Assembly (NCBI GenBank): GCA_036405175.1
Contig: DASWYC010000002.1
Coordinates: 123,429 to 187,428 of the forward strand
Source of the DNA: Minisyncoccota bacterium
Lineage (GTDB): Bacteria; Patescibacteriota; Minisyncoccia; Phycocordibacterales; UBA1006
Length of the DNA stretch: 64,000 bases
Reading direction: 5' to 3'
Position 1 is the stretch's first letter, and every line of letters starts with the position of its first letter. The translations under genes were made by a program, and so were the position numbers. The notes beneath the pieces are model-generated. The model did not search any database, was not told the DNA's origin, and saw only the letters and a list, made by a program, of their open reading frames with translations. Of this stretch, positions 3,393 to 30,200 are shown piece by piece.

Positions 3393-4835
3393 ATGAGATA
3401 TGTTATTTATGCAATTCTGGTTGTGTGTGGTTTGTTTTCTGTGGTTCATGCAAGTGAAGCATTGGTTATTACTGAAATTATGTATGATGCCAAGGATGCT
3501 GATACTGATAAAGAATGGATTGAAGTTGTGACTGAAAGTTTGACCGCGCCGCTTGCTTCGATTCGACTCCAAGTGGGTGACAAGAAACATACACTCAAAA
3601 GTAATACGAGTGGCGATACGTTACCAAGCGGCGCGGTCTGTATTATTGCCCAATCAGAAACTAATTTTAAATTATTGTTTCCAAACTTTAGTGGGTGTAT
3701 TTTTGAGTCGGGATTTTCATTAACCAATCAATCGGGAAGTATAAAAATTGTACATGGAACGAGTGGTGAAGTGTATGGAGCTGCAGAGTATACAAGCGCA
3801 ATGGGTGCAGCTGGTGATGGGAACTCACTTACATTAGGGGGATCAGGGTTTGCAGGCAAAACACCGACCCCAGGCGTAGATTCTCGAGGTGGAGGGGATC
3901 AGGCGCCAGCTAATCCAGATAATACTTCTCAACCCACGCAACCTACAACACCATCTAACTCTGGAGTGGCAGAAGCAGTACAAATGAGTAATCCTCAGAC
4001 AGATTATAAAATTACAATTACGTCACCTAAATCGCTTTTTGAATATGAAACACTCCATATTCCGCTTACGGTGACCTTTAAGAGTGGCAGAGAGGTGCTT
4101 GAAATAAAAAGCGGGACACTCTACATATCATACGGAGACGGATCATTTGATGTAATTAATGATGGAAACTTTGCTTTAAAACATACGTATGAACATGCTT
4201 CAAATGTAACAATCAAGCTGTACTATTATTCATCACCATTGGCGAGTCTTGCCGACGCTGAAGCAACGGTTAAGCTAGAGGTAAAACAATTTCCGCTTAA
4301 TATTTTATATGGCGATAAACGAGAGCTGGTTATTACCAATAGCGATTCCATAGATTACAGCTTAACCGGATTCACTGTACAAACAGATACAACTCATGTG
4401 TATGAGTTTCCATTTGGTATGGTGGTTGCTGGTAAGGGAAGCATTGTCATTCCCTATGAGTTGCATGGGCTGCGTGGCGCGAATATCGTGCTCTATGATA
4501 AGCGTCATAAAAAGATCGTAACAACAGCAAGTCTTAATCCTACGGTTGAAAGTCTCATGGCTACTCAAGAGAAGGTGATGGAAGCAGTCTCACCGTTTAT
4601 TGAAACGCCTAGTGCGGATGCTGCATCTCAAGAAACATCAGGAGAGAGAATGATTGTTCAAGAAACGACTGCTCCAGGGCAAAAAAGCTCAAACAAGAAT
4701 GTAGGGCTTTATTTGGCACTCTTTGGGGCCGGAATACTCGTTTCATTTGCCATAGAATATACATCTAAGCTTATTGCACGCAAAAAAGCATCACCCGTGA
4801 AAGATGATGCTTTGATGGACGAACCACTCTTATAG
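3393..4835 (+). CDS. secreted/membrane-anchored lamin-tail-domain (LTD) protein
   Basis: Signal peptide MRYVIYAILVVCGLFSVVHA. LTD signature LVITEIMYDAKDADTDKEWIEVV...SLTNQSGSIKIV...GNSLTL. C-terminal TM anchor LYLALFGAGILVSFAI plus basic tail. Confidence 0.55.
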   Translation: MRYVIYAILVVCGLFSVVHASEALVITEIMYDAKDADTDKEWIEVVTESLTAPLASIRLQVGDKKHTLKSNTSGDTLPSGAVCIIAQSETNFKLLFPNFSGCIFESGFSLTNQSGSIKIVHGTSGEVYGAAEYTSAMGAAGDGNSLTLGGSGFAGKTPTPGVDSRGGGDQAPANPDNTSQPTQPTTPSNSGVAEAVQMSNPQTDYKITITSPKSLFEYETLHIPLTVTFKSGREVLEIKSGTLYISYGDGSFDVINDGNFALKHTYEHASNVTIKLYYYSSPLASLADAEATVKLEVKQFPLNILYGDKRELVITNSDSIDYSLTGFTVQTDTTHVYEFPFGMVVAGKGSIVIPYELHGLRGANIVLYDKRHKKIVTTASLNPTVESLMATQEKVMEAVSPFIETPSADAASQETSGERMIVQETTAPGQKSSNKNVGLYLALFGAGILVSFAIEYTSKLIARKKASPVKDDALMDEPLL

Positions 4836-5663
4836 TACTGATGAGAGTGATAGGTATTCGTACAAATCAGCAGTTTCTTTAAGAAGAGTCTTAATCTCGT
4901 GAATATTTGCATCTGAGAGAGCGTTAATGCGATGAGTAAGATCTTCAAGCTGTGCAACGGTCTTAGGGGTTGCAAGTTCAGGATGTTCTTTAATGATAGA
5001 TTCTGATTCATTAAGGGTGTCTTTGATCGCACGGATGATTTGAGAATAATCTTGTGTGCTGCCATTTGGTCCAACCATAGAAGTGATGGCAAGCTGTTCC
5101 TCGTATTCTTGATTGCGCTTGAGCATATCATTTACCAAACTTTGTACAAAGCTAAGCACTTCGCTGCTGCTATCTTTGTTAATCATGAGCATTGAAAGTG
5201 CTGATTGATAGAGTCCAAGGATAGCCGTACTTGAAACGAGCGTTTCTTCTGGTTTGGTGGTTACATTTTCTTCAATAGAATTTGCGTATGCGGTATGGGC
5301 AGAAATCAATGAAGAGCGCATCTCTGGCGTAAATGCAACAGGATTCTTTACCAAGAGTGCAATATTATTTTGAATAAGAGTATTTTGGTATTGTGAAGCC
5401 GTATCAATATTGGTGAAATAGTTTAGATACAACCCAGAAACTACCACGACTACTGAAAATGCAGCGGCAACAACCTTTTGAGAAAAGATAAATGAAAAAA
5501 ATGGACTCGTAGTTTTTTTATGACGACGAATTTGGTGTTGCGCGAGTTTGGTGCGGAATTGATCGTTGAGTTTTTGTGACTCAGCTGCAGACAAAGAAAA
5601 ATATCCTTGCGCATTTTTGGCAAGTGATTCAAAGTTTTTGTTGTGAGGATTATGAGTATTCAT
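4830..5663 (-). CDS. putative anti-sigma factor (single-pass membrane protein, operonic with ECF sigma)
   Basis: ATG at 5663 overlaps the sigma-factor stop (5650). TM segment VVAAAFSVVVVVSGLYL after a short cytoplasmic N-terminus, then a large extracytoplasmic domain. The architecture is typical of anti-sigma factors. Confidence 0.4.
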   Translation of the reverse strand: MNTHNPHNKNFESLAKNAQGYFSLSAAESQKLNDQFRTKLAQHQIRRHKKTTSPFFSFIFSQKVVAAAFSVVVVVSGLYLNYFTNIDTASQYQNTLIQNNIALLVKNPVAFTPEMRSSLISAHTAYANSIEENVTTKPEETLVSSTAILGLYQSALSMLMINKDSSSEVLSFVQSLVNDMLKRNQEYEEQLAITSMVGPNGSTQDYSQIIRAIKDTLNESESIIKEHPELATPKTVAQLEDLTHRINALSDANIHEIKTLLKETADLYEYLSLSSVL

Positions 5664-6201
5664 ACGTCTGGGATATTTTTTGGTACACCTCCTGAGCCTT
5701 GGCGAGTGCGCGGTGTGACAACACTGAAGCATTATTGAGACTGACACCGTAAATCTTGGCGATCTCTTCAATGGATAATTCATTAATATATCGCTTGATG
5801 AGAACATCTTGATATTTGGGTGAAAGCTGATCCATCACGCGGTTGAGAAGCGTCACATGTGTGACATCTTTCTCATTCTGCTTCTCGCTGACATCCATGT
5901 GATAGTCATCCATCATGGCATCCAGCGATACTGCTTTTTTCTTGCGAGAATGGTCAATAATAAGATTTTTTGCCACTTTGTATAAAAATGGACGGACGGT
6001 CTCAATAGTATGCTTCTCAAGGAAGTCATACGTTTTAATAAACACATCCGATGTGATATCCATCGCCACATCACGATCACGAACTCGCGCTACGACAAAC
6101 CGAAAGATTTCCTGCTGAAATTCATTGAAAATCTCAGAAATATCAAGGCTGTTTGATTGATTAAGTTCGCTCATAAGTAGTGACGTATGAGAGGGGTACA
6201 C
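5650..6201 (-). CDS. ECF-type sigma-70 family RNA polymerase sigma factor (start GTG 6201 or ATG 6174)
   Basis: Region 2 (FNEFQQEIFRFVVARVRDRDVAMDITSDVFIKTYDFL) and region 4 HTH (ELSIEEIAKIYGVSLNNASVLSHRALAKAQ) motifs. Confidence 0.7.
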   Translation of the reverse strand: MYPSHTSLLMSELNQSNSLDISEIFNEFQQEIFRFVVARVRDRDVAMDITSDVFIKTYDFLEKHTIETVRPFLYKVAKNLIIDHSRKKKAVSLDAMMDDYHMDVSEKQNEKDVTHVTLLNRVMDQLSPKYQDVLIKRYINELSIEEIAKIYGVSLNNASVLSHRALAKAQEVYQKISQTYEYS

Positions 6202-6265: not shown

Positions 6266-7366
6266 TTATTCTGCTTTCTTTCGGGTGCTCATGAAGCTGC
6301 CGATAATCCCAGCAGTTCCAATAATGAGAAGGATTACGGCAATCCATTCGCGGGCGGTATTTGGAAGATTGATTCCACGTTCACGTTCAATCGCTGTTTC
6401 TTCCACGATAGGTTTGGTTTCTTGAGTAAACACAGCATCATCTTGATATGATTCTTCAGTAATTGGTTCAGTTTCCTGAACAAATACATCATCAGGTACA
6501 TCTTGTGATACTTCTACCTCTGAACGATCGCGAGTGTTCAGGAATTGAGCCCAGACACGCTTAATCCAAGCCCAAATGCGTTCAAAAAAGTTTTGTGAAT
6601 GAGATTCATCGGTAATTATAGGATCTTCAAGATAAGGATCCTGACTATAGGTTTCATCTTCAGGGAAGAGCGGGGTAAGATCTTCAAACGTAGGAAGATG
6701 GTCATCTTCAAAAACTTCAGGCTCTGCAGTAACTGGCGCTGGTTCAATAATGGTTGGTTCAACCGCTGCAGGTTCGGGGATAACTATAACGGGCGATGAT
6801 CTCTTTGGTTGTGTATAGGTGTACCGAGGGGTTGGATCTTTAAGAGTGGTGAGTTCGCGCTTGTAAGTTGCAGCAGTCATATTGCATCCACGTGCAAGAA
6901 TACGGTATTCATAACGAGTATTTGGCACCAAGTTTTCAACCTTTACCACTTCTGCTTGGTGTGAACTTGAAAGAATAAGAATGTCTGATTGTCGATGATT
7001 TCTGTACACAGAAGCATTTAAAAGAATTTGAGTACGAACAATAGGGCAGGTTGACCCTTCAATAGAAACAGGAATATATGCATGGGTTATTCCAACAGAC
7101 TCCGGCTCACGAATAGACAGATTGAGTCCAAGGGTGCCAAACGCAGGATTTGAGTCCCAAGTGCTTATTATGGTGTTGAAAGAAGAATTAGTAAAAGGCT
7201 GATGAGAAACCTCTACATATCCATTAGGAAGAACACGGGTGTAGCGTGACTGGGTTCCATCATCCGCAGTAGTACTCGTAATTAAAAGCCCAAATGCAAG
7301 CATGATTAAGCCACCAGAAAATACAAGCGTATGGGGCGAACGGAGTGAGCGGGTTGAGAATTTCAT
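6266..7366 (-). CDS. secreted surface protein with FN3-like domain, acidic/Pro-rich linker and C-terminal TM anchor
   Basis: Signal peptide after MKFSTRS. NLVPNTRYEYRI FN3-like strand pattern. EPAAVEPTIIEPAPVTAEPE linker. C-terminal WIAVILLIIGTAGIIGSF then RKKAE. Confidence 0.4.
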   Translation of the reverse strand: MKFSTRSLRSPHTLVFSGGLIMLAFGLLITSTTADDGTQSRYTRVLPNGYVEVSHQPFTNSSFNTIISTWDSNPAFGTLGLNLSIREPESVGITHAYIPVSIEGSTCPIVRTQILLNASVYRNHRQSDILILSSSHQAEVVKVENLVPNTRYEYRILARGCNMTAATYKRELTTLKDPTPRYTYTQPKRSSPVIVIPEPAAVEPTIIEPAPVTAEPEVFEDDHLPTFEDLTPLFPEDETYSQDPYLEDPIITDESHSQNFFERIWAWIKRVWAQFLNTRDRSEVEVSQDVPDDVFVQETEPITEESYQDDAVFTQETKPIVEETAIERERGINLPNTAREWIAVILLIIGTAGIIGSFMSTRKKAE

Positions 7367-7426
7367 AGATATCTTTATTGTGAGGAAAAATTCATACTCC
7401 ACAACTTGACGCCAGTCCTAAAGATT

Positions 7427-9116: not shown

Positions 9117-12074
9117 ATGAAGCAGGAATTTGACCCGAAAGCGTTCGAGAAAAAATGGCAGGATTACTGGCAAGAAAACGGCACCTACTCAACCAATTTT
9201 GAATCATCAAAACCAAAGAAATATATTCTGGATATGTTTCCCTATCCATCAGGGGCAGGACTCCATGTAGGACATCCTCGTGGATATATTGGAACGGATG
9301 TGTACTCACGTTTCCAACGCATGAAAGGGTTTGAAGTGCTTCACCCTATGGGATTTGATGCGTTTGGTCTGCCGGCAGAAGAGTATGCACTCAAAATGAA
9401 AACAACACCGCAGCTTTCGGTGTCACAAAATATTCAACGATATAAACAGCAGCTTGAAATTATGGGAGTTGATTACGATTGGTCAAACATGGTCTCAACG
9501 ACTGATGAGCAATTCTATAAATGGACACAGTGGATCTTTTTGGAGTGTTACAAAAAAGGACTCGCATATGAATCAAATGAACCGATCAACTGGTGTCCAA
9601 GTTGTAAGACGGGTCTTGCTAATGAAGATTTAAATAGTGATGGAACCTGTGAGCGCTGTGGAACGTTGGTTGAAAAAAAACCACTCAGACAGTGGGTATT
9701 AAAAATTACTGACTACGCAGATAAATTATTGACTGGACTTGATACACTTCCATTATGGCCGGACTTTGTTAAAGAATCGCAGCGCAATTGGATTGGAAAA
9801 AGTGAAGGAAGTGAATTTGTATTTAAATTAGTTGACGCAAACGGTAACGGGCTCGAAGAATCACTTACCGTATTTACTACACGTGCAGATACGTTGTTTG
9901 GGGTGACGTATGTGGTTGTTGCACCAGAACATGCATTGGTGACGAATAGTGCGATTGTAAATAAGCACGAAGTACTTGGCTATCAAGAATCTGCATTTAA
10001 GAAAAATGAAATTGAGCGTTCAAATCAAACTCTTGAAAAAACTGGCGTGAAAGTCGACGGTGTATTTGCCGTGCATCCTGCAACGGGTGAGCATATTCCG
10101 GTATATGTTGCTGATTATGTAATTGGATCATATGGAACGGGAGCCGTGATGGGTGTTCCTGCGCATGATGAACGTGATTTTGCGTTTGCAAAAAAATATA
10201 ACATTCCTGTTAAAAAGGTAGTATTTATTGAAAATGGTGATCGTCGTGAGAATGAAGAATTTAGAAATGGAGGTTGTGGTGTTATTTTTGATCCTGCCAC
10301 ACAAAAATATGCAGTAGCTAAGTGGAATGATGACGGGCGAGTATTGTTGTTTGCTGGAGGCGTTGATGATGGAGAAGATGTACACGATGGAGTATTAAGA
10401 GAAGTAAAAGAAGAAAGTGGTCTGTATGATATTAAGCACTTTGAATGGGTTGATACGGCTTACGCTCACTACTTTAATAAAGCGAAAAATGTAAATCGTG
10501 TTGCACGTGCTGAGTGCTATTTGGCTATTCTTAATTCTGCCGATGCGCAAGAAGTTCATCGGGAGCCTCATGAGAATTTTGAGTTAGTATGGATGAGTGC
10601 CCAAGAAATCTTAAATCATTGGATTGAAAAAAATGATTCAGGCTTACATCACTACATTCATTTCTTTAAGCAGGCGGTTGCTCGAGCTATTGAACTTGGT
10701 CATGATGCCGTGTCCTCTTCAAAAGTTTTTGCGGCAAACGCATTTTGTGATGATGGAATAGTTGAATTAGAATCAGGCGTAAATGGAATTACGTCTGAAG
10801 AAGCTCGCATAAAAATTACCGAACAATTTGGAAAGAAAGTTGTTAATTATAAAATTCGTGATTGGACATTTTCTCGTCAGCGTTATTGGGGTGAACCAAT
10901 TCCTCTTGTGTTTGACGCTAATCATAAAGCATATCCACTTCATATGAGTGAGCTTCCAGTAACACTTCCGAACGTTGAATTTTACGAGCCAACAGGAACC
11001 GGAGAATCGCCACTTGCGAACATTTCTGAATGGATGAATGTTGAAGGATATGTAGCCGAAGATGGGTCTGTGAAAACCATTAAAGAAGGAGAGTCTGCAC
11101 CCACAGGTGTAGCGGTTCAAAAGTTTACACGTGAATCAAACACCATGCCAGGATGGGCAGGTTCATCGTGGTATTACATCCGCTATATTGATATGAATAA
11201 TGACAATGAATTTATCAGCAAAGAGCGCGAACAAAAATGGTTGCCGGTTGATATGTATGTTGGTGGTGTTGAGCACGCAACACGTCACCTTATCTATGCA
11301 CGCTTTTGGCATAAAGTACTCTTTGATCTTGGATTTGTTCACACCGAAGAACCATTTACCGTTTTGAAAAACCAAGGACTCATTATGGCAAGCGATGGTC
11401 GCAAGATGAGTAAGCGTTGGGCGAATGTGGTAAATCCGGATGACGTAATTGCAATGTTCGGAGCTGATGCGTTCCGCATGTTTGAGCTCTTTATTGCACC
11501 ATTTGATCAAACAACACCGTGGCAAGATGATGGCGTAGTGGGAACCCGCCGATTCCTTGAACGTGTGCACAAATTAATGATTGCTGATCATAAAGAAGGG
11601 GAAGAGTCTGCAGAAGTGCTTAAAGCGCTCCATAAATCAATTAAGAAACTCACCGACGGTATTGAAAATTTTGCATTCAACACGTGCGTTTCTGATTTGA
11701 TGATTACCTTGAAGGTGCTTGAAAAACAGGAAGATGGGGTAACTGTTGAGGCTAAAAAAATCTTTGCACAGTTGTTGGCACCAATGGCACCACATGCAAC
11801 CGAAGAATGGTGGCGTATGTTGGGTGAAGAAACATCAATTCACAATAGTGCATGGCCTCAGTATGATGAGAAGTATCTTGTTGATGATGAAATGACTATT
11901 GCAGTCCAGATTAACGGAAAAGTTCGTGCGACCGTAGTCATTGCTGCTGATGCAGATGAAGCTGCGGTGCGTGAATTAGTATATGCACAAGAAGCGGTTC
12001 AAAAATATACTACAGGGGTTGAGATTAAGAAGGAAATGTATATTCCAGGAAAGATTTATACGATTGTAATCTAA
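9117..12074 (+). CDS. leuS: leucyl-tRNA synthetase carrying an inserted Nudix hydrolase domain
   Basis: PYPSGAGLHVGHPRGY (HIGH), TTRADTLFGVTY, GTGAVMGVPAHDERDF, RQRYWGEPIP, KMSKR (KMSKS). At 985 aa it is ~130 aa longer than typical. The extra segment contains Nudix box GGVDDGEDVHDGVLREVKEESGL. Confidence 0.9.
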   Translation: MKQEFDPKAFEKKWQDYWQENGTYSTNFESSKPKKYILDMFPYPSGAGLHVGHPRGYIGTDVYSRFQRMKGFEVLHPMGFDAFGLPAEEYALKMKTTPQLSVSQNIQRYKQQLEIMGVDYDWSNMVSTTDEQFYKWTQWIFLECYKKGLAYESNEPINWCPSCKTGLANEDLNSDGTCERCGTLVEKKPLRQWVLKITDYADKLLTGLDTLPLWPDFVKESQRNWIGKSEGSEFVFKLVDANGNGLEESLTVFTTRADTLFGVTYVVVAPEHALVTNSAIVNKHEVLGYQESAFKKNEIERSNQTLEKTGVKVDGVFAVHPATGEHIPVYVADYVIGSYGTGAVMGVPAHDERDFAFAKKYNIPVKKVVFIENGDRRENEEFRNGGCGVIFDPATQKYAVAKWNDDGRVLLFAGGVDDGEDVHDGVLREVKEESGLYDIKHFEWVDTAYAHYFNKAKNVNRVARAECYLAILNSADAQEVHREPHENFELVWMSAQEILNHWIEKNDSGLHHYIHFFKQAVARAIELGHDAVSSSKVFAANAFCDDGIVELESGVNGITSEEARIKITEQFGKKVVNYKIRDWTFSRQRYWGEPIPLVFDANHKAYPLHMSELPVTLPNVEFYEPTGTGESPLANISEWMNVEGYVAEDGSVKTIKEGESAPTGVAVQKFTRESNTMPGWAGSSWYYIRYIDMNNDNEFISKEREQKWLPVDMYVGGVEHATRHLIYARFWHKVLFDLGFVHTEEPFTVLKNQGLIMASDGRKMSKRWANVVNPDDVIAMFGADAFRMFELFIAPFDQTTPWQDDGVVGTRRFLERVHKLMIADHKEGEESAEVLKALHKSIKKLTDGIENFAFNTCVSDLMITLKVLEKQEDGVTVEAKKIFAQLLAPMAPHATEEWWRMLGEETSIHNSAWPQYDEKYLVDDEMTIAVQINGKVRATVVIAADADEAAVRELVYAQEAVQKYTTGVEIKKEMYIPGKIYTIVI

Positions 12075-13886: not shown

Positions 13887-13946
13887 TACCTACTTAGCAA
13901 AACAAAGTCCTGACAGAAAACTTGCTTTTTGATATACTCAAACTAT

Positions 13947-14369
13947 ATGAAATCATTTATCGCTAAATATAATCTGTATCTTATTTTTGGAGTTTCGCTC
14001 TTGGCAATGCTCGGAAGTCTCTTTTTTAGTGAAGTAATGGATTTGCCACCATGTGTATTGTGCTGGTATCAGCGCATTGCACTCTATCCAATGGTAATTT
14101 TATCAGCTATTGCAATCTATAAGAAATCAAGAGAAGTATATAGCTATATGCTAGGGCTTTTGATTCCCGGATTCCTTATTTCGCTTTATCATAACTTACT
14201 CTACTATAAAATACTTCCAGAAAGCGTGTCTCCATGCACGGCGGGGGTATCATGTACGACCAAATTCTTTGAGTGGTTTGGCTTCATTACCATTCCTTTG
14301 CTTGCATTTGCTGCATTTGTTATACTGATCCTACTTGTGGTGAAAGGAAAAAATCGCCAAAGTAACTAA
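13947..14369 (+). CDS. disulfide bond formation protein B (DsbB/BdbC family)
   Basis: Four TM helices, CVLCWYQR (CxxC) in the first loop and a second Cys pair CTAGVSC. Confidence 0.6.
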   Translation: MKSFIAKYNLYLIFGVSLLAMLGSLFFSEVMDLPPCVLCWYQRIALYPMVILSAIAIYKKSREVYSYMLGLLIPGFLISLYHNLLYYKILPESVSPCTAGVSCTTKFFEWFGFITIPLLAFAAFVILILLVVKGKNRQSN

Positions 14370-14376
14370 TATATTT

Positions 14377-15105
14377 ATGAAGAATGAAACAAAAATTATT
14401 ATTGGAATTGTAATTGCAGCTGTTGCAATACTCATAGTTGGAGCATTTGTGTTCTCAAAGAATGCCGTGCAAGACGAAGTAGTATCAAATGAGCCAGTTG
14501 CAATGGATATTTTGGTAAAACCAAACAGTCATACCACGGGACTTTCTCAAGGAGAAAGTAAGGTAACCCTGGTTGAATTTGCAGACTTTGAGTGTCCTGC
14601 ATGTGCTTATGCTCATCCAATGACAAAAAAGATTATGAAGGATTATGCTGATAAGATCACTTTGGTGTATCGTAACTTCCCGCTTCATATAAATTCTAAT
14701 CTTGCAATCTATGCGGCCGAGGCTGCAGGTGAGCAAGGTAAGTTCTGGGAAATGCATGATAGATTGTTCGAAGGACAGCAATCATGGACCGGCAAGCCTA
14801 CTAAAGAAGTGAAAGAAATCTTTGGTCAGTATGCAACAGAAATTGGACTGGATGTTACAAAGTTCAAGGATGTAATGGATAGCAAAAAGTACGATAACTT
14901 GATTGAGTCAGATAAGAAAGACGGAAACACTGCTGGTGTGGGAGGAACTCCAACATTCTTCTTGAACGGTAAGCGTCTTGAAGGAGGCGTGCCAACAGAA
15001 GCTGGTTTGCGCAAGCTTATTGATGAAGCACTCAAGGCTAAAGTTCCAGCAACTCCAACTGCAGAAATTGGAAACATTGAAGTTGAAGCAGTTCCTGCTC
15101 AATAA
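14377..15105 (+). CDS. DsbA/BdbD-family thiol:disulfide oxidoreductase, membrane-anchored
   Basis: N-terminal TM anchor, thioredoxin-fold CPAC active site (FADFECPACAYAHP). GGTPTFFLNGK cis-Pro loop region. Confidence 0.65.
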   Translation: MKNETKIIIGIVIAAVAILIVGAFVFSKNAVQDEVVSNEPVAMDILVKPNSHTTGLSQGESKVTLVEFADFECPACAYAHPMTKKIMKDYADKITLVYRNFPLHINSNLAIYAAEAAGEQGKFWEMHDRLFEGQQSWTGKPTKEVKEIFGQYATEIGLDVTKFKDVMDSKKYDNLIESDKKDGNTAGVGGTPTFFLNGKRLEGGVPTEAGLRKLIDEALKAKVPATPTAEIGNIEVEAVPAQ

Positions 15106-18790: not shown

Positions 18791-18916
18791 GGGAACTTTT
18801 AAAATTCATTTCTAAAATCAAGCTCGCTGTGCGCATAGTATGATGCATATATAATTCACAAACGAATAGTTTGAGTACGCTATACTTATTATATGAATCG
18901 ACTCTCTACATTTAAG

Positions 18917-20245
18917 ATGGGTGTTATGGTAGTTGCAGGTGTTGCAATTTTGTTGGCATTTATTTTATTCGCAACTAACCGTGGAACGTCTACGAGCGGT
19001 GCTGTTGTAGGTACGGTGAATGTATGGGGATCATTCCGTCCGGAAGAAATTGAACCGTTGCTCAATATTGCGCGCACACAGTATCCGGATCTTAAAATTG
19101 ATTTCACCAATAAGCCAGAAAGTACTATTTATACCGATTTTGTAAGCCAAGCTGCAACCAACCAGAGTCCTGATTTGGTAATTGTTCCTATTTCAGAAGT
19201 ACTTTCATATGTCCCATTCATTAGCCCTATTTCAAAAGCATCATTGTCTGATCGTGTAATTAGTGAGCAGTTTATTGATGGCGTATATCCGCTCAATACA
19301 GCACTTGGTATGATCGGTGTTCCAATTTCAATTAATCCTATGCTGTTCATTGCTAATAAAGAATATCTTCAATCAATTTTTGTTGCTAATCTGCCGGGAA
19401 CCTGGGAAGATCTTACAGGACTTACTGAACAACTTGCACGAACTGCTGGCTCTACCATTGAACAACCGGTAATTCCGCTTGGAACGATCTCACAACAATC
19501 AGAAAGCTATGGCGTACTTTTGTCTATGTTTTTACAGGCACGATCTACGTTAATAACCAGCCAATTAGGTACCAATGCAAACCCTACATCAACTGAGTCA
19601 CAGGTTGGATTTAGAAGTGATATTGAAGGTGCTTCATCAGTAATGTACACCTCGCTTGGATCTGCGTTTGATTATTTCTCTGCATATGCACGTCCCGGTT
19701 CAAATGTATTTTCATGGAGTGAGTCGTTGGGTAACCCTATTACATTATTTAAAACCAAGCAGTTGCCATTGTTAATGCTTTCATATAATAGTTTAATGAC
19801 AAACTTCTCAGCAAGTGATCTTTCAGCACTCGCAATAACCTTGTTACCGCTCACATCGCAAGATGTTACTGCAAGCAAACCGGTTTCTTATGCCGATGGA
19901 TACGTTGCTGTAATTCCAAAACTTGCACGTAATGTGAATGGAGCATATGGAACTGCCTTCTCGCTTATTGGTGAACAAGCTCAGCAGCAGATTCCAACAG
20001 CGCTTAAGCACTATCCAATTCTCAAGTCTCTTCTTGCTTCAAAAAAAGATAATCCATTGGATGAAATTGCTCGTAAAGCATCTATCCAATCGGTGGTTAT
20101 ACCATTTACCTCACGCCAGGCATTACGTGATTTGCTCGCCAAAACACTTGCATCATACACCAGCGGTCGCCTTGACCAAGACGGTGCTATTGTGGAGTTC
20201 TCAAATTCAATATCATCAATGCTTGAAAAACTTCAGCTTAAATAA
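18917..20245 (+). CDS. N-terminally anchored extracellular solute-binding-protein-like protein
   Basis: TM anchor MGVMVVAGVAILLAFILFA, then VNVWGSF...PDLKIDF...SPDLVIVP pattern resembling type-1 periplasmic binding proteins. No adjacent permease/ATPase genes. Confidence 0.35.
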   Translation: MGVMVVAGVAILLAFILFATNRGTSTSGAVVGTVNVWGSFRPEEIEPLLNIARTQYPDLKIDFTNKPESTIYTDFVSQAATNQSPDLVIVPISEVLSYVPFISPISKASLSDRVISEQFIDGVYPLNTALGMIGVPISINPMLFIANKEYLQSIFVANLPGTWEDLTGLTEQLARTAGSTIEQPVIPLGTISQQSESYGVLLSMFLQARSTLITSQLGTNANPTSTESQVGFRSDIEGASSVMYTSLGSAFDYFSAYARPGSNVFSWSESLGNPITLFKTKQLPLLMLSYNSLMTNFSASDLSALAITLLPLTSQDVTASKPVSYADGYVAVIPKLARNVNGAYGTAFSLIGEQAQQQIPTALKHYPILKSLLASKKDNPLDEIARKASIQSVVIPFTSRQALRDLLAKTLASYTSGRLDQDGAIVEFSNSISSMLEKLQLK

Positions 20246-20284: not shown

Positions 20285-23200
20285 ATGTATATAACTATTA
20301 TGAATCCTGATGAACTCAAGGCTCAGCTGGAGCAGATTGAAAAAAAGAAAAAACGTAATGCAATGTTGATTGCCTTGGGATTTGCAGTGCTTGGCATCAT
20401 TGTTATTTTTGGAATTTATAGTGCGTTTGTGCGCAATGTAAATCGTGAACGAACCGAAAGTACGCAATACTCTCTTTTTGAGCGTATTTTTGGTGGTAAG
20501 AAAAATCCTCAAGTAGTAGATGAAGCAGCTCAGACAGAAGGAGAAACAAAACAGGTTGAGAATAAAAATAATGGAACATTCGGAGTAAAGTTCACCTCAC
20601 TTGCAGAAAAGTGGTTTCCAAGTTATGCAAAGGGTGTTAAAGAAAACTCAACAAACATTGTTCGCCCATTGAGTGTCTCATCAAATATCTTTGAAGACCC
20701 TGAATATATAAAAAAATATGGAAAAGTGAATAAAGATGAGGCAACGTTGGAAGACATGGCGCGTGCTATGGAATTTGCATCAGAGCGCGGCTCTGAAATT
20801 ACGGATCAAATTGGCAGCCTTGAAAAACAAGTAAGTGAATATAATCGTGAATTTGATGATGAAAAGCAAGAGCTTGATGCATTAAAAGCGCAGCTTGCAA
20901 ACTTAGAAGCACTTGAAGCCCAGGCTACTCAAAATGGTGATCCGGTTGATCTATCTCGCGTACGACGCCGTGCACAAATAGAATCTATTAAACAGCAAAT
21001 TTCTGGACTTGAGCAAAATGTTACCACACATCAGCAAATTTCTGGTGCAATGACCAAGCAGATTGGATCACTTAATACGCAATACAACGGAATTACTCAA
21101 CAAGTCGCAAACTACAACAGTAGCATTACCGGTCTTGAGCAGCAAATTGGAGGATTTTATTCTGAATATACCAAGCTTGATCCTCAGGTAAAACAATATT
21201 TGAATCAATTAAAGAATTTTGATCTTCAAATTCTTAAAACTGACCCAATGTTGAGCAAATTGTCACCACAGTTTTTGGAATTTTTTGTACAAATTAGTTC
21301 GCTCAGAAATCAGTTAACAGAAACATTTGATTCGCAGATTAAAGATCTGTATGCACAAATTAAGTTTTTGAAACTTCAGGTAACATCATTTACGAGTCAG
21401 AAAGTAGTACCAATCGTATCTCAACTTGATGTTCCTATTTTTAAAACCAAGTATCAAATTGGAGCTACCGCAAATGGCATTCCTGCAACAGAAGTCTATC
21501 TAGTAACTGCAATGAATAGTCTTAAAGGCTATTGGGATGGAATTGGAACGGTTAAGCCACAAGTAACAGGAGTTCTCTTCCAGCTTGATGCTAACAAAGA
21601 TGGCAAGTTATCATCAGTTGATTTTGATGGTCTTGGATTTACTCAAGAACAAGTTTTGTCACTTCAAAATCAAATTGATTACGATAAGCTTGAGGGTATT
21701 CCGTGGGCGACCTATGTTGAAGCGTATGATGTTGATCGTGACGGGATTGTTGAGCTATCTGAAATTAAAAAGGTTCTCAGTACTAATGCTGGTAATGCAC
21801 TTCAAAAACTTAATCTTACCCAACAGCTTGATCTCAACAAGGATGGGAAAGTTACCCCCGACGAGCTTCAAAATCAAATTGTATATATTGAAAATCAAGG
21901 AATTTCATGGGAGAAGTTCTTGGCGGCATATGATCTGAATAAAGACGGTTTTGTTACTACTAAAGAAATGAAGACTGCGCTTGAGAATAATACCGATAAT
22001 ATTCTTCAACGACTTAACCTTGCGCTTCAGCTTGATACTAATAAAGATGGAAGAGTATCTCTTATTGATTTTAAGAGTCAGATTGTTTATTTGGAAAATT
22101 CAGGACTTAAGTGGTCAGACTTTTTGGCGGCATATGATAGCAACGCAGATCGTCAGATTACCGTAGAAGAAATGAAGTATGCCATGGAAACTAATTATGG
22201 AAATGTGCTTAAGCAGCTCAATCTTACATCTCAACTTGATGTAAATAAAGATGGCATTGTTACTCAGAATGAATTTTTCCAGCAACTTGATGCCAACAAA
22301 GATGGTTTTGTGACCAAGGCTGACTTTGATGGATTTAGTAGTGGTATGATGATCGCAGAATTTGATGGAAGTATCACTGGTGTGCGTGATGGATTTGCAA
22401 CACTTGATGAAATTAGGTATGCACTCAGTAAAAATCAAAATAGCGTATTCTATCGCTTTAAGCTTAAGAATCAACTCGACCTTGATGGTGATAATATTGT
22501 AAAGCGTCCATATCTTAATATTTTTGGTGATTATGTAGTTGATTCTCGTGAAATGTTGAATGTTGCCGATATTAACGGTGACGGCATCTTTGAGCGCTGT
22601 AGATTTAAGGATATGTACGGTAACTGTATTCCAGAAGGATTTTTGCAGTTGGATGTTGATGGTAATCTTATCCCTGATGTATATCTGCAGGGCGATACTG
22701 ATGGTGATGGAAAAATTAATCCATGCTATTACACCGATACAGGAAAGCAATGTTTTGCAGAAGGATACAGCCCTAATGATTACAATTTCTTTGGTAATCC
22801 AGACTATTTCTTCCAGCTTGATACCAATGGTGACAATATTTACAACGAAAAAGATGCATTTGACCCATACACCTTTGTATTTAGAAAAACTGCAACGGTT
22901 CCAATATATATCAACGAAGAGGATTCATGGCGCGATGAAGAAAGTGGGCAAGCGCAAGTTGCCTTAATGGTAGACTTTACTCCAGGAAAGACGCTCATAC
23001 AAAATATGACGCTTACCATGGTGAAGTATAAGATTGATAAGACCGGAAAGCCGTACGATGTTAGCGGCTTTGGAGGAGGAACATGTACGCTCAGCCGTAC
23101 CAAGACAACTGTGCAAAAGAATGAAAAAGATCTTGGATTCTGCTATCTCCAAGGAGGAAATGTTTCTCCGGATGATTACTTTGATGTACTTGCAACATTG

Positions 23201-24829
23201 TATGGGCCAACATCAATTACTCAGCCAAACATTCTGCAGGGAATTCTTAATCAATTTACTCAAGCTCAAGCCAAGCCAATCATTACCTACGGCTACACAA
23301 CGGTTACCGTTATGAGTAGAAATTCATTCTCATCAATTGATCAGCCGGCAAGTAAATGGTATTACCTTACAAGCACCAATCCGCGCACCCCGAGTACGTA
23401 CTATGCTCAACGACAAATCTGTTTAAATGAGGCACGAGCATACGCAACTAGTACTGGTAAAACTGGCCAGCCGCCATGTTATCGAGAAATCTTTTCTCGC
23501 GCAACGTATTACTTCTTTACCGAGGTAGATCCTCAAATAGTAAAGAGTCCAGATTATCCTGATCTTAAGACGTGTACGGCAGAGGCACAAAAAGCAAAAC
23601 AAGCTGCTAAACAGGCCATGGAGGCAGAAATTAAGAAGCGTAACGATGAGTTGCGAAAACAAGGTAAACCTGCCAATGTTGGACCATCGTATGATCCTCG
23701 TTCATTTAGTTGTATTAATAGTGACAATAAATCACAGCTTCCAACGGTTGATGATGGGGAACCAACGTTCATTAACCAGATTGAAGGTCTTGTTGATCAG
23801 GATAAAACCTATCGCGGATTTACATTCTTTATTAAAACAAATCCAAAGCGCACCAACAAAGAGGCAACAATTGAGTTTGCGGCAACGAACTACATGCCAA
23901 GTGCATTGGCTTCAAAAGATGAGAATAAGGCATCAACCTATCCGGTAACGTTCTACTACTGGAAAGATGGAACTGCTAACAAGTTCACCATACCAATCAC
24001 CGCCAATGTTCAGCCATTAACGCCGGGTCAAACATTTTCAGGACTTTATGAAACCGTAAAGGTGACCGGAAATCCTGGAGAAACAATTAACTTTGAATTT
24101 ACCGAAATGGTGCCCGATGAAAGTACGTCTGATCCGGTTGACCTTAAAGAGGTAAGTGTCAGTGGTGTTCGATCAGTAACGCTGATGACCGATAAAGAAT
24201 TTGAAGCTTCGAAAGATTATAAGAAGAGTCCAGTAAACCAAAGTATGTACCAGGAGGTGAGCGCAGCATCGCCCACCTTTTCTGGTTTTGGTATCTTGAA
24301 GCAGGGGATTATTTTTTGTGGATACGATGGATATTGGCCAACATATGACGGAGCTAAAAAGAGATTCAATTACACATTGCCCGCGGCTTTTTTAGCTAAT
24401 CCAACTAAATATGGTATTGATCCTGCTAAAATAAAAGGCTTAGTTGAAGGTGAGGGTGCGAGCGCAAAAGCTGTTACATATTTTGACGGCAAACCTCAAA
24501 TGGTGACGGTGTTTAATAAACAAGTTGATGAGAATGAGCTCTGCTCATGGCCACATGTGATTGCCTCGTTCAATCGTATTGTGAATATTATCTTGAAGGT
24601 GTTTATGCCGCTTGCAATTGGGATCTTAATCATGGTGATCGGTGTTCGCTATTTGATTGCAGCATATAAGGGTGCTCCGGTTAAATTAGTTGAGAATAAA
24701 AAGGCATTATGGCGCATTGTTATTGGGACCTTGATTATTCTCAGCTCGTTTGTGATTGTTCGATTGATTGTGACTACGCTCAATCAACAAGAATGGTTTG
24801 GTCAGTTTGTTGACGTAACAGGGAAATAG
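20285..24829 (+). CDS. giant (1514 aa) membrane-anchored surface protein with coiled coils, ~10 EF-hand-like Ca-binding repeats, a Cys-rich domain and a C-terminal two-helix membrane domain
   Basis: N-terminal TM LIALGFAVLGIIVIFGIYSAF. Heptad-rich Q/E region. Repeated QLDxNKDGxVTxxE loops (DLNKDGKVTPDE, DTNKDGRVSLID, DVNKDGIVTQNE, DANKDGFVTKAD...). DTDGDGKINP. Many Cys. C-terminus FMPLAIGILIMVIGVRYLIAAY...ALWRIVIGTLIILSSFVIV. Confidence 0.5.
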   Translation: MYITIMNPDELKAQLEQIEKKKKRNAMLIALGFAVLGIIVIFGIYSAFVRNVNRERTESTQYSLFERIFGGKKNPQVVDEAAQTEGETKQVENKNNGTFGVKFTSLAEKWFPSYAKGVKENSTNIVRPLSVSSNIFEDPEYIKKYGKVNKDEATLEDMARAMEFASERGSEITDQIGSLEKQVSEYNREFDDEKQELDALKAQLANLEALEAQATQNGDPVDLSRVRRRAQIESIKQQISGLEQNVTTHQQISGAMTKQIGSLNTQYNGITQQVANYNSSITGLEQQIGGFYSEYTKLDPQVKQYLNQLKNFDLQILKTDPMLSKLSPQFLEFFVQISSLRNQLTETFDSQIKDLYAQIKFLKLQVTSFTSQKVVPIVSQLDVPIFKTKYQIGATANGIPATEVYLVTAMNSLKGYWDGIGTVKPQVTGVLFQLDANKDGKLSSVDFDGLGFTQEQVLSLQNQIDYDKLEGIPWATYVEAYDVDRDGIVELSEIKKVLSTNAGNALQKLNLTQQLDLNKDGKVTPDELQNQIVYIENQGISWEKFLAAYDLNKDGFVTTKEMKTALENNTDNILQRLNLALQLDTNKDGRVSLIDFKSQIVYLENSGLKWSDFLAAYDSNADRQITVEEMKYAMETNYGNVLKQLNLTSQLDVNKDGIVTQNEFFQQLDANKDGFVTKADFDGFSSGMMIAEFDGSITGVRDGFATLDEIRYALSKNQNSVFYRFKLKNQLDLDGDNIVKRPYLNIFGDYVVDSREMLNVADINGDGIFERCRFKDMYGNCIPEGFLQLDVDGNLIPDVYLQGDTDGDGKINPCYYTDTGKQCFAEGYSPNDYNFFGNPDYFFQLDTNGDNIYNEKDAFDPYTFVFRKTATVPIYINEEDSWRDEESGQAQVALMVDFTPGKTLIQNMTLTMVKYKIDKTGKPYDVSGFGGGTCTLSRTKTTVQKNEKDLGFCYLQGGNVSPDDYFDVLATLYGPTSITQPNILQGILNQFTQAQAKPIITYGYTTVTVMSRNSFSSIDQPASKWYYLTSTNPRTPSTYYAQRQICLNEARAYATSTGKTGQPPCYREIFSRATYYFFTEVDPQIVKSPDYPDLKTCTAEAQKAKQAAKQAMEAEIKKRNDELRKQGKPANVGPSYDPRSFSCINSDNKSQLPTVDDGEPTFINQIEGLVDQDKTYRGFTFFIKTNPKRTNKEATIEFAATNYMPSALASKDENKASTYPVTFYYWKDGTANKFTIPITANVQPLTPGQTFSGLYETVKVTGNPGETINFEFTEMVPDESTSDPVDLKEVSVSGVRSVTLMTDKEFEASKDYKKSPVNQSMYQEVSAASPTFSGFGILKQGIIFCGYDGYWPTYDGAKKRFNYTLPAAFLANPTKYGIDPAKIKGLVEGEGASAKAVTYFDGKPQMVTVFNKQVDENELCSWPHVIASFNRIVNIILKVFMPLAIGILIMVIGVRYLIAAYKGAPVKLVENKKALWRIVIGTLIILSSFVIVRLIVTTLNQQEWFGQFVDVTGK

Positions 24830-24837
24830 TTATTAAA

Positions 24838-24870
24838 AGAGCGGCGCACGTAGTGCGCCGCTCTTGTTTT
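24838..24870 (+). terminator. strong intrinsic terminator (12-bp GC-rich stem agagcggcgcac/gtgcgccgctct then tgtttt)
   Basis: Perfect 12-bp inverted repeat immediately after the giant gene stop. Confidence 0.8.
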
Positions 24871-25681: not shown

Positions 25682-26326
25682 CTAATTTTGTATAACTTCT
25701 TTTGTATTAACTTTTTTAATAATAAGCCACACTGCAGTCGCTGCAGCAAAAGGAGTCATATATATCCAAATATTTGCTGTCAAAGCAAGATAATCACGAC
25801 TCGCATCACCAAGCCAAGAAATTCTTGAAAACATGATTGCTGTTAGATTGATTTTTTCCCGATAAGAATAAATCGCAGATCCTGTTGCATGTGCAAATAA
25901 AAACCAGAAATATGCGACCAGGATATAGTGCCTTGTGATTCTTTGTTTCAATAAAGGATCCTTTGCACTATTTGTGTCCAAGTTCAAACCTTTAGGTTTT
26001 GGTTTAAAAAAACCAAATAGAACAATAAAGATTACTTTTTTGCCTATCTTTACCCAAGCAGTTATATGGGGCGGCCAGATAATTGATTTCAATACGAAAA
26101 TCAAGAAAATTCCACCTATGGTGTAAAGAGTAACCCGAATACCATAGGAAATGGATTCGTAATAATGTCTTGTGCTAATCAATGAAATGATTAGACCTAT
26201 CAAGACAAACATTGTTAGAAGGGCGGAAAGTGGCTTTCTAAGGCTATTTTTTAAATGAGCAAATAACCACAAGAAACCTTTTTTAGATAGTGTTTGCAAA
26301 AAACTCAATGGATTTTTCATCAGCAA
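25682..26326 (-). CDS. hypothetical polytopic membrane protein
   Basis: 4-6 predicted TM helices. No motif recognised. A minus-strand hairpin with T-run follows at ~25630-25660. Confidence 0.35.
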   Translation of the reverse strand: MLMKNPLSFLQTLSKKGFLWLFAHLKNSLRKPLSALLTMFVLIGLIISLISTRHYYESISYGIRVTLYTIGGIFLIFVLKSIIWPPHITAWVKIGKKVIFIVLFGFFKPKPKGLNLDTNSAKDPLLKQRITRHYILVAYFWFLFAHATGSAIYSYREKINLTAIMFSRISWLGDASRDYLALTANIWIYMTPFAAATAVWLIIKKVNTKEVIQN

Positions 26327-28862: not shown

Positions 28863-30200
28863 ATGGTTTTTTTAACCCGTTATATTAATCACAAAGTGAT
28901 TTCTGTATTAATGACCCTTACGTTTGTCTTTCAGCCATTCGTAATCTACGCTCAATCTACGTCAACTGAGCAACGAGCAGCACTTGAGGCTGAGCTTAAA
29001 AAGTTGGAAGCAGAAATTAAAGAGCAGGAAGGTTTGCTTAATGACCAAAAGAAAAAAACTGGTGTCATTAGTGGCGATCTTAAAAAGATCTCGGATCAAA
29101 TTGCTGCCAAGCGTACCGAAATTGCTGCTAAACAAAAACTTATTAGTAATCTTTCGTCTCAGATTGGGCAAAAAGACAGCACCATCAAGCAACTCACTTC
29201 AGAATTGACTCGTGAAAAGGAGTCACTTGCACGTTTGGTGCGTAAGATGCGTGAAGTTGAAGATGCTTCGCTCCCAGAATTTCTTCTTGATTCAAAGACT
29301 GTTTCTGAGTATTTCTCTGATTTTGATAATTCATCATTTATTCAAGACGAACTTCAGGGAAGTCTTCGTACGACTCGTATTGAACATGATAAAACCGTAG
29401 ATGAAAAAGAGGTATTGGAGGATAAGAAAACTAAAGAAGCAGAAGTACGTGCCAAGCTTGAAGCTGAACGCCAAAAAGCACAAGTTGATCACACCAAAAA
29501 AAATAGCGAACTTACTGATGCTAAAAAAGTAGAAACAAAAATCAGTAACGATATCGCTGCTCGTAAAAAAGAGGTAGCCAAGATTCAAGCTCGACTCTTT
29601 GAGCTCCGCGGACAAAAAGGAATTTCATTCGGTTCTGCATATGACTATGCAAGGAAAGCAGAAGCTAAGACGGGCGTAAGTGCGGCATTCGTATTGGCAA
29701 TTTTGAAGCAGGAAAGTAATCTTGGAAAGAATGTAGGAACCTGTAATCGTCCTGGCGATGCACGTACCTGGAAAGATATTATGCCGGGTCCTGATGATGG
29801 TTCATGGCGCGATGATCAAAAAGTGTATCTTGAGATCATGTCTGATCTTGGACGAAGCCCAGACGGACAGCCACTATCATGTCCAATTGGTAAAGGATGG
29901 GGAGGAGCAATGGGGCCTTCGCAGTTTATCCCAACCACCTGGAAGAGCTATGCGTCCCGCATTGCTAAGGCGGTAGGAGAATCACCCGCTGATCCGTGGA
30001 ATCCTGAGCATGCAATTACGGCAACATCACTCTACTTGTCAGATTTAGGCGCAGGATCAACGTATGAATCACTTAAGCAGGCAGCATGTAAGTACTATTC
30101 TGGACGTGCATGTGCCTCAAGTACGGTCTTCTATGGAAATGCGGTGGTAAGTCATGCTAAGGGATTTGAAGCAGATATTAAGTTGATTGAAAGTATCTAA
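28863..30200 (+). CDS. secreted coiled-coil protein with C-terminal lytic transglycosylase-like domain
   Basis: Signal peptide. Long coiled coil (LEAELKKLEAEIKEQEGLL...). C-terminal ILKQESNLGKN...GAMGPSQFIPTTW resembling the MltB/Slt catalytic motif. Architecture is PcsB/EnvC-like. Confidence 0.5.
   Translation: MVFLTRYINHKVISVLMTLTFVFQPFVIYAQSTSTEQRAALEAELKKLEAEIKEQEGLLNDQKKKTGVISGDLKKISDQIAAKRTEIAAKQKLISNLSSQIGQKDSTIKQLTSELTREKESLARLVRKMREVEDASLPEFLLDSKTVSEYFSDFDNSSFIQDELQGSLRTTRIEHDKTVDEKEVLEDKKTKEAEVRAKLEAERQKAQVDHTKKNSELTDAKKVETKISNDIAARKKEVAKIQARLFELRGQKGISFGSAYDYARKAEAKTGVSAAFVLAILKQESNLGKNVGTCNRPGDARTWKDIMPGPDDGSWRDDQKVYLEIMSDLGRSPDGQPLSCPIGKGWGGAMGPSQFIPTTWKSYASRIAKAVGESPADPWNPEHAITATSLYLSDLGAGSTYESLKQAACKYYSGRACASSTVFYGNAVVSHAKGFEADIKLIESI

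Follow-up and report, generated by a model that had tools for sequence, protein, structure and literature searches.

The longest open reading frame (ORF) in the 64-kb stretch of contig DASWYC010000002.1 of a Minisyncoccota bacterium analysed here (the window) lies at positions 20285-24829 of the plus strand and encodes a giant protein of about 1,500 residues. Profile searches and conserved motifs indicate that the C-terminal module of this protein is a divergent member of the VirB2-like pilin superfamily of Patescibacteria, rather than a standard member of the Pfam family PF18895. With moderate confidence we regard the whole gene product as an extreme 'modular' representative of that pilin family, in which a large, presumably extracellular region has been combined with a pilin. 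The most informative element of its genomic context is the adjacent gene for an SBP-like protein, which in other Patescibacteria directly precedes arrays of pilin genes. The original prediction, made from the sequence alone, had called this the largest gene of the window with a product of 1514 residues, and this holds, with the amendment that the likelier start codon gives 1509 residues. The gene and the regions of its product are as follows:

20285 to 24829, plus strand: the giant ORF, 1514 residues from the ATG at 20285; probable true start at the ATG at 20300, giving 1509 residues
20363 to 20431, plus strand: N-terminal transmembrane helix, residues 27-49 (hydropathy), with a 26-residue Lys/Arg-rich tail ahead of it
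20702 to 21409, plus strand: Q/L/E-rich, heptad-like alpha-helical region, residues 140-217, 221-299 and 339-375 (heptad scan)
21560 to 22504, plus strand: EF-hand array, residues 426-740 (Pfam EF-hand_1/5/6/7 above cut-offs; internal repeats)
22568 to 22864, plus strand: two ~42-residue repeats (internal repeat), each with a DxDGDG-type acidic loop followed by C-x8-C (C772/C781 and C814/C823)
22865 to 24433, plus strand: orphan ectodomain or 'head', residues 861-1383, with 7 conserved Cys (934/953, 1046/1065, 1097/1143 and 1345)
24434 to 24826, plus strand: VirB2-like module of the PF18895 (T4SS_pilin) type, residues 1384-1514 (phmmer, hhalign, hidden Markov model and AlphaFold2)

Hence ~1,380 residues, made up of a helical stalk, ~4 EF-hand pairs, two Cys-stapled acidic loops and the 520-residue head, are placed between the N-terminal anchor and a module which in its relatives amounts to nearly the whole mature protein (median 132 residues).

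The C-terminal VirB2-like pilin module

Hydropathy analysis detected three hydrophobic helices in the giant protein, at residues 27-49, 1437-1460 and 1474-1495. The latter two form the core of the C-terminal module, which consists in order of C1420, helix 1 (residues 1437-1460), a short KGAPVKLVENKK loop, helix 2 (residues 1474-1495) and a 19-residue tail. Thus the giant shares with VirB2-like pilins the pair of hydrophobic helices, with a short connecting loop of positive charge, at the extreme C-terminus, but it has neither the size of the PF18895 pilins (~100-230 residues) nor their cleavable signal peptide. A phmmer search with residues 860-1514 as query against 1.84 billion protein representatives recovered 30 non-self matches with E-values from 2.3e-6 to 9e-4, all of them on the last ~90 residues of the giant and all corresponding to the C-termini of proteins of 100-530 residues. 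PF18895 (T4SS_pilin) is present in 27 of these 30 proteins, and PF04956 (TrbC/VirB2) is also found in 11 of the 30. A hidden Markov model (HMM) built from the matches with the query excluded scored 82.8 bits on the giant, and an hhalign comparison of the profile of the giant and its ortholog with one of 50 PF18895 proteins gave a probability of 98% (E 1.4e-13) across 90 columns.

The similarity extends to residues outside the hydrophobic cores, where the family conserves the motifs C-x-[FW]-x-H-[VL]-I..NRI, G-x-P-x-K and KK-x-LW-x-V-IG, together with a P in helix 1. In the giant these are retained as C-x-W-x-H-V-I..NRI ahead of helix 1, as G-A-P-x-K within the loop and as KK-x-LW-x-V-IG; likewise, the second Cys of the pair typical of the family (GLVPCG...C-x-F) is kept as C1420. 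The module is 88% identical between the giant and its ortholog, and an AlphaFold2 (AF2) model of residues 1330-1514 folds as a helical hairpin with pLDDT >90. The likeness of the two C-terminal helices to VirB2/TrbC pilins, which the original prediction had proposed, is therefore sustained by the PF18895 and TrbC/VirB2 matches and by the hhalign result; on the two points at which that prediction had exposed itself, the repeats proved to match their HMMs and the hairpin to resemble VirB2.

An SBP-like leader gene and the pilin arrays of relatives

The giant gene is preceded by another membrane protein gene and followed by a hairpin:

18893 to 20245, plus strand: membrane-anchored SBP_bac_1/8-like protein of 450 residues (Pfam SBP_bac_8, 30.4 bits)
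24837 to 24865, plus strand: very strong intrinsic-terminator-like hairpin, 13-bp stem with 9 G-C pairs and a T-rich tail, 8 nt past the giant stop codon

The SBP-like gene is separated from the giant gene by 39-54 nt, and the two are probably co-transcribed; the hairpin, judged by its stem and tail, would end this transcription unit. The same hairpin overlaps the listed TTG start (24864) of a downstream nitroreductase ORF, the true start of which is probably located further downstream.

The SBP-like protein displayed full-length homology to the products of genes situated directly upstream of extended pilins in four unrelated metagenome loci (phmmer E 4e-30 for L011, 2e-28 for L006, 1e-21 for L003 and 1e-5 for L005), and BLASTP also recovered this relationship. 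In Paceibacteria-type genomes, these proteins form a divergent, membrane-anchored family of ~430-450 residues, without an adjoining ABC permease or ATPase in the annotated loci. We surveyed homologs of the SBP-like protein from GTDB species genomes, which returned 80 loci, all 80 from Patescibacteria, using for the pilins an HMM built from the matches to the giant. An ORF with the pilin module directly follows the SBP-like gene in 73 of the 80 loci: its start lies between -73 and +41 nt relative to the SBP stop in 71 of these, and 140 or 282 nt downstream in the remaining two. Among the seven exceptions are two loci with <200 nt of downstream sequence and one with a mere fragment of the SBP ORF. 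The SBP-led loci usually contain 4-6 pilin ORFs (mode 5) and sit among housekeeping genes, with GyrA and a methyltransferase upstream and IF-2 downstream. In the loci with annotated upstream genes (L003, L006 and L011) the order is methyltransferase, SBP, pilin array; L003 and L011 have GyrA still further upstream.

Among the 327 pilins encoded in the arrays the median length is 132 residues, the 95th percentile lies at 417 residues and the longest has 766. In 292 of them the module is at the C-terminus. It is also C-terminal in the 21 that reach at least 300 residues. The long pilins that we scanned contain fn3, PKD, CHB_HEX_C or Ig-like domains between the N-terminus and the C-terminal module, and those of at least 400 residues start with a signal-peptide-like N-terminus, unlike the giant. 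Examples of such modular long pilins are:

L003, 10001 to 11236
L062, 9299 to 11596
L083, 9242 to 10600
L036, 9262 to 10797
others in further loci

When ten long survey ORFs were compared with PF18895, nine matched (E<0.01), six of these above the gathering score, and three further array ORFs gave sub-threshold matches; by these scores several array ORFs that are devoid of precomputed Pfam annotation appear to be divergent pilins. First pilins account for 35 of the 77 ORFs matched by the module of the giant, as against 74 of the 327 pilin ORFs overall. Hence, the giant module preferentially matches first pilins, and the giant itself fills the first-pilin slot of an SBP cassette, with the SBP-like leader directly upstream, but as the sole pilin module in the window.

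Architecture of the anchor, stalk and ectodomain

The helix at residues 27-49 is preceded by a charged tail of 26 residues, and by inspection no AXA signal-peptidase site accompanies it. It is thus probably an uncleaved signal anchor with a cytoplasmic N-terminus, in line with the signal-anchor that had been proposed earlier. Inspection of the N-terminus (MYITIMNPDELKAQLEQIEKKKKRNAMLIALGF) also revealed no prepilin-peptidase motif or class III signal peptide of the form G|F/M-x-x-x-E. We read both the N-terminal tail and the loop between the two C-terminal helices as cytoplasmic because both are basic. The coiled coil of ~350 residues that had been proposed next to the anchor shrank on analysis: the heptad scan supports ~235 residues in total (residues ~140-375), in three segments set apart by Pro, and the matches of this region to coiled-coil families (Crescentin rod, SMC) are all sub-threshold. 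The presence of two ~78-residue helices with a GDP turn between them suggests a helical-hairpin stalk.

The repeats that follow were originally described as tandem Ca-binding EF-hands, and both EF-hand and dockerin HMMs indeed recognise them. EF-hands are recognised by matches to PF00036, PF13202, PF13405 or PF13499 above the gathering score, together with paired, helix-flanked 12-residue loops of the form DxDxDG...E. The giant passed the curated cut-offs with 71.5 bits for EF-hand_1, 69.8 for EF-hand_5, 64.4 for EF-hand_6 and 59.9 for EF-hand_7, and contains eight canonical 12-residue Ca loops, at residues 435, 482, 516, 550, 584, 618, 652 and 669. The six loops from 482 to 652 are spaced by exactly 34 residues, resulting in a 34/68-residue periodicity, and each loop has an entering and an exiting helix (WEKFLAAY-DLNKDGFVTTKE-MKTAL). 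Three 68-residue units, each an EF-hand pair, are ~50% identical to one another (E 1e-13 to 1e-19) and are flanked on both sides by degenerate copies. Since no tandem repeats exist at the DNA level inside the gene, these 68-residue repeats are likely to be old. Searches with the EF-hand block retrieved 82 multi-EF-hand proteins, mostly bacterial or metagenomic and counted irrespective of cellular location; they are generic EF-hand proteins, none of them a specific relative of the giant or of comparable architecture. This weakens the earlier contention that extended EF-hand arrays are rare in bacterial surface proteins. Multi-EF-hand bacterial proteins appear from these searches to be common in metagenomes, and the array of the giant would by itself be unremarkable.

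Downstream of the array, the two acidic-loop repeats align with each other over residues 774-808 and 816-850 (E 4e-4), and their Cys positions are kept in the ortholog. Further acidic loops, DVDGN and DTNGDN, occur in the region of residues 762-860, where EF-hand matches are sub-threshold only. The remainder of the ectodomain is the head, for which an exhaustive phmmer search of the 1.84 billion representatives found no homolog beyond its own 50% cluster, and which matches no Pfam family. An AF2 model of residues 690-1514, made from an alignment of the ortholog and 50 pilins, had a mean pLDDT of 48 and left the head unmodelled (pLDDT <50); Foldseek searches of the PDB with this model returned noise only (E >2). 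When the giant was compared by phmmer with every ORF from 90 pilin or SBP loci, no match fell outside the pilin module, suggesting that the ectodomain was not assembled from the array genes.

The part preceding the hairpin had been depicted as a Cys-rich domain of ~600 residues. This is incorrect, as there are 8 Cys in ~560 residues and 12 in the entire protein. All 12 are kept in the ortholog, and they fall into six neighbouring pairs (772/781, 814/823, 934/953, 1046/1065, 1097/1143 and 1345/1420), a pattern that fits a disulfide-bonded exported domain. The claim that the genome encodes DsbB and DsbA was confirmed by two adjoining genes 5 kb upstream of the giant gene, which make up a pair of the extracytoplasmic disulfide-forming type:

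13929 to 14369, plus strand: DsbB (PF02600, 55.8 bits)
14377 to 15105, plus strand: DsbA-like membrane-anchored thioredoxin (Pfam Thioredoxin_4, 101.9 bits), adjoining DsbB

Conservation and selection of the giant gene

The counterpart of the giant at NCBI is VGE63_00940, an identical protein of 1509 residues from a 668-kb contig of a metagenome-assembled genome labelled 'Candidatus Paceibacterota bacterium', and identical copies were found on 5 contigs. Among the matches listed in a full-length word-indexed search there were only the protein itself and one ortholog (P0002), which derives from two independent other samples, is co-linear with the giant, and shares 81% identity and the same architecture with it. 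The ATG at 20300 is the likelier start because both the NCBI annotation and this ortholog begin at Met6. The two proteins align over their full length with 13 gapped columns, which correspond to 8 small indels, and a codon comparison gave an overall ratio of nonsynonymous to synonymous divergence (dN/dS) of 0.067. With dN/dS of ~0.07 and so few indels, the giant gene is constrained: it is a genuine gene under purifying selection and not an assembly artefact. No Rfam families or tRNAs were found inside the gene, and the antisense ORFs within it (e.g. 22115-22750, minus strand), which had no support, were treated as chance ORFs.

Divergence is unevenly distributed along the protein. The dN is 0.008 in the N-terminal anchor, 0.026 in the pre-pilin segment (residues 1301-1383) and 0.085 in the pilin module. 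The fastest-evolving parts are two segments of the head, residues 861-1000 and 1101-1300, with dN of 0.23-0.30 as against 0.07-0.09 in the other domains; compared with the stalk and the EF-hands, they evolve 3-4 times as fast. Such a pattern would be expected for a conserved mounting device with a variable contact surface.

Modular pilin or plain membrane anchor

If the giant is a modular pilin, its organisation suggests the following scenario. The entire stretch of 1,380 residues would be located outside the cytoplasmic membrane, with the N-terminus and the loop of the hairpin inside. Oxidation of its 12 Cys would fall to DsbB and DsbA, the genes of which are located 5 kb upstream, and the EF-hands, permanently loaded with Ca2+ at extracellular levels, would serve as a rigid Ca-dependent spacer and not as a sensor. 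The pilin module could then dock the giant to the VirB2-like pilin assembly of the cell, or insert into that assembly at low stoichiometry, so that the variable head could make contact with a host cell or surface. The co-transcribed SBP-like partner would probably act together with the giant. The role of adhesin or host-interaction factor put forward in the original prediction is likewise an inference.

A more specific version of this scenario is that the giant is a pilus-associated modular VirB2-type pilin recruited by a type IV secretion system (T4SS)-like machine of Patescibacteria, with the Ca2+-rigidified stalk and the fast-evolving head displayed on the filament or at its base or tip, and with the SBP-like protein as a dedicated component (pilin chaperone, assembly factor or ligand receptor). 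We advance this only tentatively and rate it as rather improbable in its full form. Several observations weigh against the modular-pilin interpretation as a whole. The N-terminus looks like an uncleaved anchor, which would leave the giant held at both ends, a state hard to square with extraction into a pilus. On the isolated C-terminus PF18895 scores 12.8 bits (E 0.13), below its cut-off of 26.6, and NF045849 scores 20.2 bits (E 3.6e-4), below its cut-off of 40. A PDB profile search with the pilin alignment placed VirB2 (8exh, 8cue) at E 0.31-0.95 among GPCR helices, and Foldseek found no matches for the AF2 hairpin model of residues 1330-1514. Retention of the first Cys in the GLVPCG motif is ambiguous, since MAFFT aligns it either with C1345 or with a Cys-less 'GLVEGEG'. 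VirB4, VirB6 and VirB3 are absent from the window and from the 8 kb upstream of it, the pilin HMM found no second pilin module in the window, and a search for the same three VirB proteins around the SBP-led arrays of other species was equally negative, with no VirB4 within 8 kb. Finally, to our knowledge no pilus of the PF18895-type family has been visualised.

The main alternative, possible but in our view doubtful, is that the pilin-derived hairpin was exapted as a plain C-terminal membrane anchor. In this case the giant would be a Ca-stabilised protein of the envelope or surface that is anchored at both ends (a spacer, an S-layer-associated protein or one for cell-cell contact), independent of any T4SS or pilus, and the SBP-like gene would be a relic of a decayed array. 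Such an origin agrees with the tethering of both ends by the signal-anchor and the hairpin, with an array that is down to one module, with the lack of T4SS genes in ~72 kb and with the possible loss of the first family Cys. However, the module belongs to the more conserved regions of the giant (88% identity; dN of 0.085 as against 0.23-0.30 in the head), and it has kept the family motifs of the loop and of the segment before the helices, which goes beyond a demand for hydrophobicity. Moreover, the adjacency of SBP and pilin has been kept in a setting other than the usual GyrA-methyltransferase neighborhood, which suggests that the SBP-giant pair is functional.

Three other explanations are unlikely. 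That the C-terminal similarity to VirB2-like pilins is an artefact of transmembrane composition, the hairpin being an unrelated two-helix anchor, would agree with the Pfam and NCBIfam scores under their cut-offs, the ranking of GPCR helices above VirB2 in the PDB profile search and the empty Foldseek result; yet the significant matches among 1.84 billion proteins, 30 out of 30, belong to one family and include no random membrane proteins, the hhalign probability of 98% over 90 columns extends to polar motifs, and the genomic context independently supplies the same SBP-like leader as that of bona fide PF18895 pilins. We accordingly see very little chance of it being right. Equally slim are the prospects of an interpretation of the repeats as dockerin-type modules, by which the giant would serve a cohesin-dockerin-like surface assembly as scaffold or cargo. 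The Dockerin_1 model (PF00404) does score 49.0 bits on the giant, above its cut-off of 22.9, and the 34-residue spacing of the loops resembles the spacing within dockerins. But the EF-hand models outscore it (60-72 bits), and in place of the dockerin F-hand geometry, a loop-helix lacking an entering helix, each loop of the giant is preceded by an entering helix, resulting in the 68-residue EF-hand pairs. The best PDB matches of the block are calmodulin, CDPK and KChIP, with no dockerin among the 60 best matches listed, and the Pfam scans that were run on ORFs of the window revealed no cohesin. Given the entering and exiting helices and these closest solved relatives, the repeats are probably EF-hand pairs, and the dockerin score a cross-match via the Ca loops. 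Mis-assembly or mis-annotation, with several genes fused through a frameshift or chimera, can practically be discounted, as it has nothing in its favor except the odd size and mosaic make-up of the giant, and is opposed by the identical protein on 5 contigs, the full-length 81%-identical ortholog from two other samples with its 13 gapped columns, and the dN/dS of 0.067 across all domains.

Relationship to known systems

In Patescibacteria, VirB2-like pilins and arrays of their genes occur widely (PMC12102498), and such pilins are essential in Southlakia epibionticum, where strain ML1 has a 6-gene array (PMC10633639; reviewed in PMC12857230). It is epibiotic growth for which the arrays are essential, as shown in the single species tested so far (PMC10633639, PMC11665869, PMC12857230). 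The giant resembles the PF18895 pilins of this phylum in its homologous C-terminal module, with the two helices, the basic loop and the motifs, and in its first-pilin position behind an SBP-like leader, as in 73 of the 80 loci. It differs from the array pilins in being ~11 times their median size and twice as long as the longest (766 residues), in starting with a signal-anchor and not with a cleavable signal peptide, and in carrying coiled-coil, EF-hand and orphan domains where theirs are either lacking or of the fn3/PKD type. It further differs in constituting a single module in place of 4-6, and in scoring below the Pfam cut-off. The closest parallels are the extended PF18895 pilins, such as P0021 (PKD and pilin, 411 residues), the 766-residue protein of L062 and that of L083 (fn3/CHB_HEX_C and pilin), which share with it the order of leader, extracellular domains and C-terminal module, and many of which are likewise encoded by the first gene after the SBP-like gene. 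Their inserts, however, comprise 100-650 residues of Ig-like beta-sandwich type, with no EF-hands, no coiled coil and no sequence in common with the ectodomain of the giant.

In concept, the giant may be compared to the modular type IV pilins (e.g. PilB and PilC of Streptococcus sanguinis), in which an adhesin or lectin module is grafted onto a polymerising pilin module. Those pilins possess a class III signal peptide, bear the graft at the C-terminal end and depend on the type IV pilus machinery. The analogy would be confined to the grafting of a functional module on a pilin: fold and machinery are unrelated, and the giant would bear its graft N-terminally, on the side that faces outward, and has no prepilin-peptidase motif. 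The Mbov_0395 family of Mycoplasma integrative and conjugative elements (NF045849), like TrbC-VirB2 (PF04956), is related through a match that spans model positions 8-79 of 80 (E 3.6e-4), and comprises two-helix pilin-like proteins of the T4SS of wall-less or monoderm bacteria. The giant reaches only half of the curated cut-off of this family, the members of which have ~80-120 residues and are encoded within conjugative elements. With regard to the EF-hands, the XopAW family of Ca-binding effectors (NF041410) also has tandem canonical EF-hand pairs and scores 76.6 bits on the giant, short of the 120 bits set as its cut-off. Generic proteins with EF-hand domains from Planctomycetota, Acidobacteria and others are 23-30% identical to the block. 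Unlike the giant, both groups consist of proteins of 240-770 residues without a pilin module, coiled coil or orphan head.

Neighboring genes

The giant is embedded among housekeeping genes, namely those for LeuRS, DnaE, a nitroreductase, L25 and CysRS. A coupling-protein-like ATPase had been noted in the same window:

638 to 3166, plus strand: soluble P-loop ATPase of 842 residues, with sub-threshold or borderline matches of the type IV coupling protein (T4CP)/TraD/HerA type (DUF87, TraG-D_C, TrwB_AAD_bind)

The P-loop ATPase is indeed present, but its affinity to coupling proteins is borne by these sub-threshold or borderline matches, so that this part of the claim stands on a weak link. It is without an N-terminal transmembrane segment, and no T4SS genes occur within 8 kb upstream. 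The gene is found at 100% identity in the samples SRR11449184 and SRR11449186. T4CP-like genes of Patescibacteria are mostly found far from virB4 (PMC12102498), and the position of this ATPase away from T4SS genes fits that separation.

Other ORFs of the window deserve a brief mention. A 445-residue protein that combines a coiled coil at its N-terminus with a lytic transglycosylase domain at its C-terminus (SLT_2/MltB-like; 28863-30200, plus strand) could be a VirB1-like cell-wall hydrolase; no T4SS gene is linked to it there. The LeuRS (9117-12074, plus strand; 985 residues) contains a NUDIX domain inserted after the editing domain (residues 409-505, E 1.3e-9), an architecture also seen in the precomputed annotation of locus L093, and a NusB-NUDIX fusion of the same organism is encoded just upstream of the window (L093, 1998-2924). 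The product of 3393-4835 (plus strand; 480 residues) has an N-terminal Lamin Tail Domain (PF00932, 38 bits), with the rest unannotated, and is probably a further surface protein. Sizeable ORFs without a family assignment are 6266-7402, 4830-5807, 25682-26326 and 45562-47193, all on the minus strand; the first of these has faint fn3-like matches only, and 25682-26326, judged by eye from its sequence, looks like a multi-pass membrane protein.

Implications for the pilin systems of Patescibacteria

The VirB2-like arrays themselves were already known; the linkage to an SBP-like leader, the domain-bearing array pilins and the EF-hand fusion came up neither in the T4SS and pilin papers on Patescibacteria that were searched nor in full-text searches. 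The SBP-like partner, located directly ahead of the arrays in 73 of 80 loci, provides a testable handle on these systems. The existence of a sub-class of array pilins with grafted extracellular domains argues for binding modules that are shown to the outside. One lineage has extended such a pilin to ~1,500 residues, and its orphan head is a natural candidate for a determinant of host specificity. Should the plain-anchor interpretation alone be true, the giant would still be a clear case of a pilin module recycled as a membrane anchor; should the giant instead be associated with a pilus, it would represent a pilin-borne host-recognition device in a secretion-system pilus.

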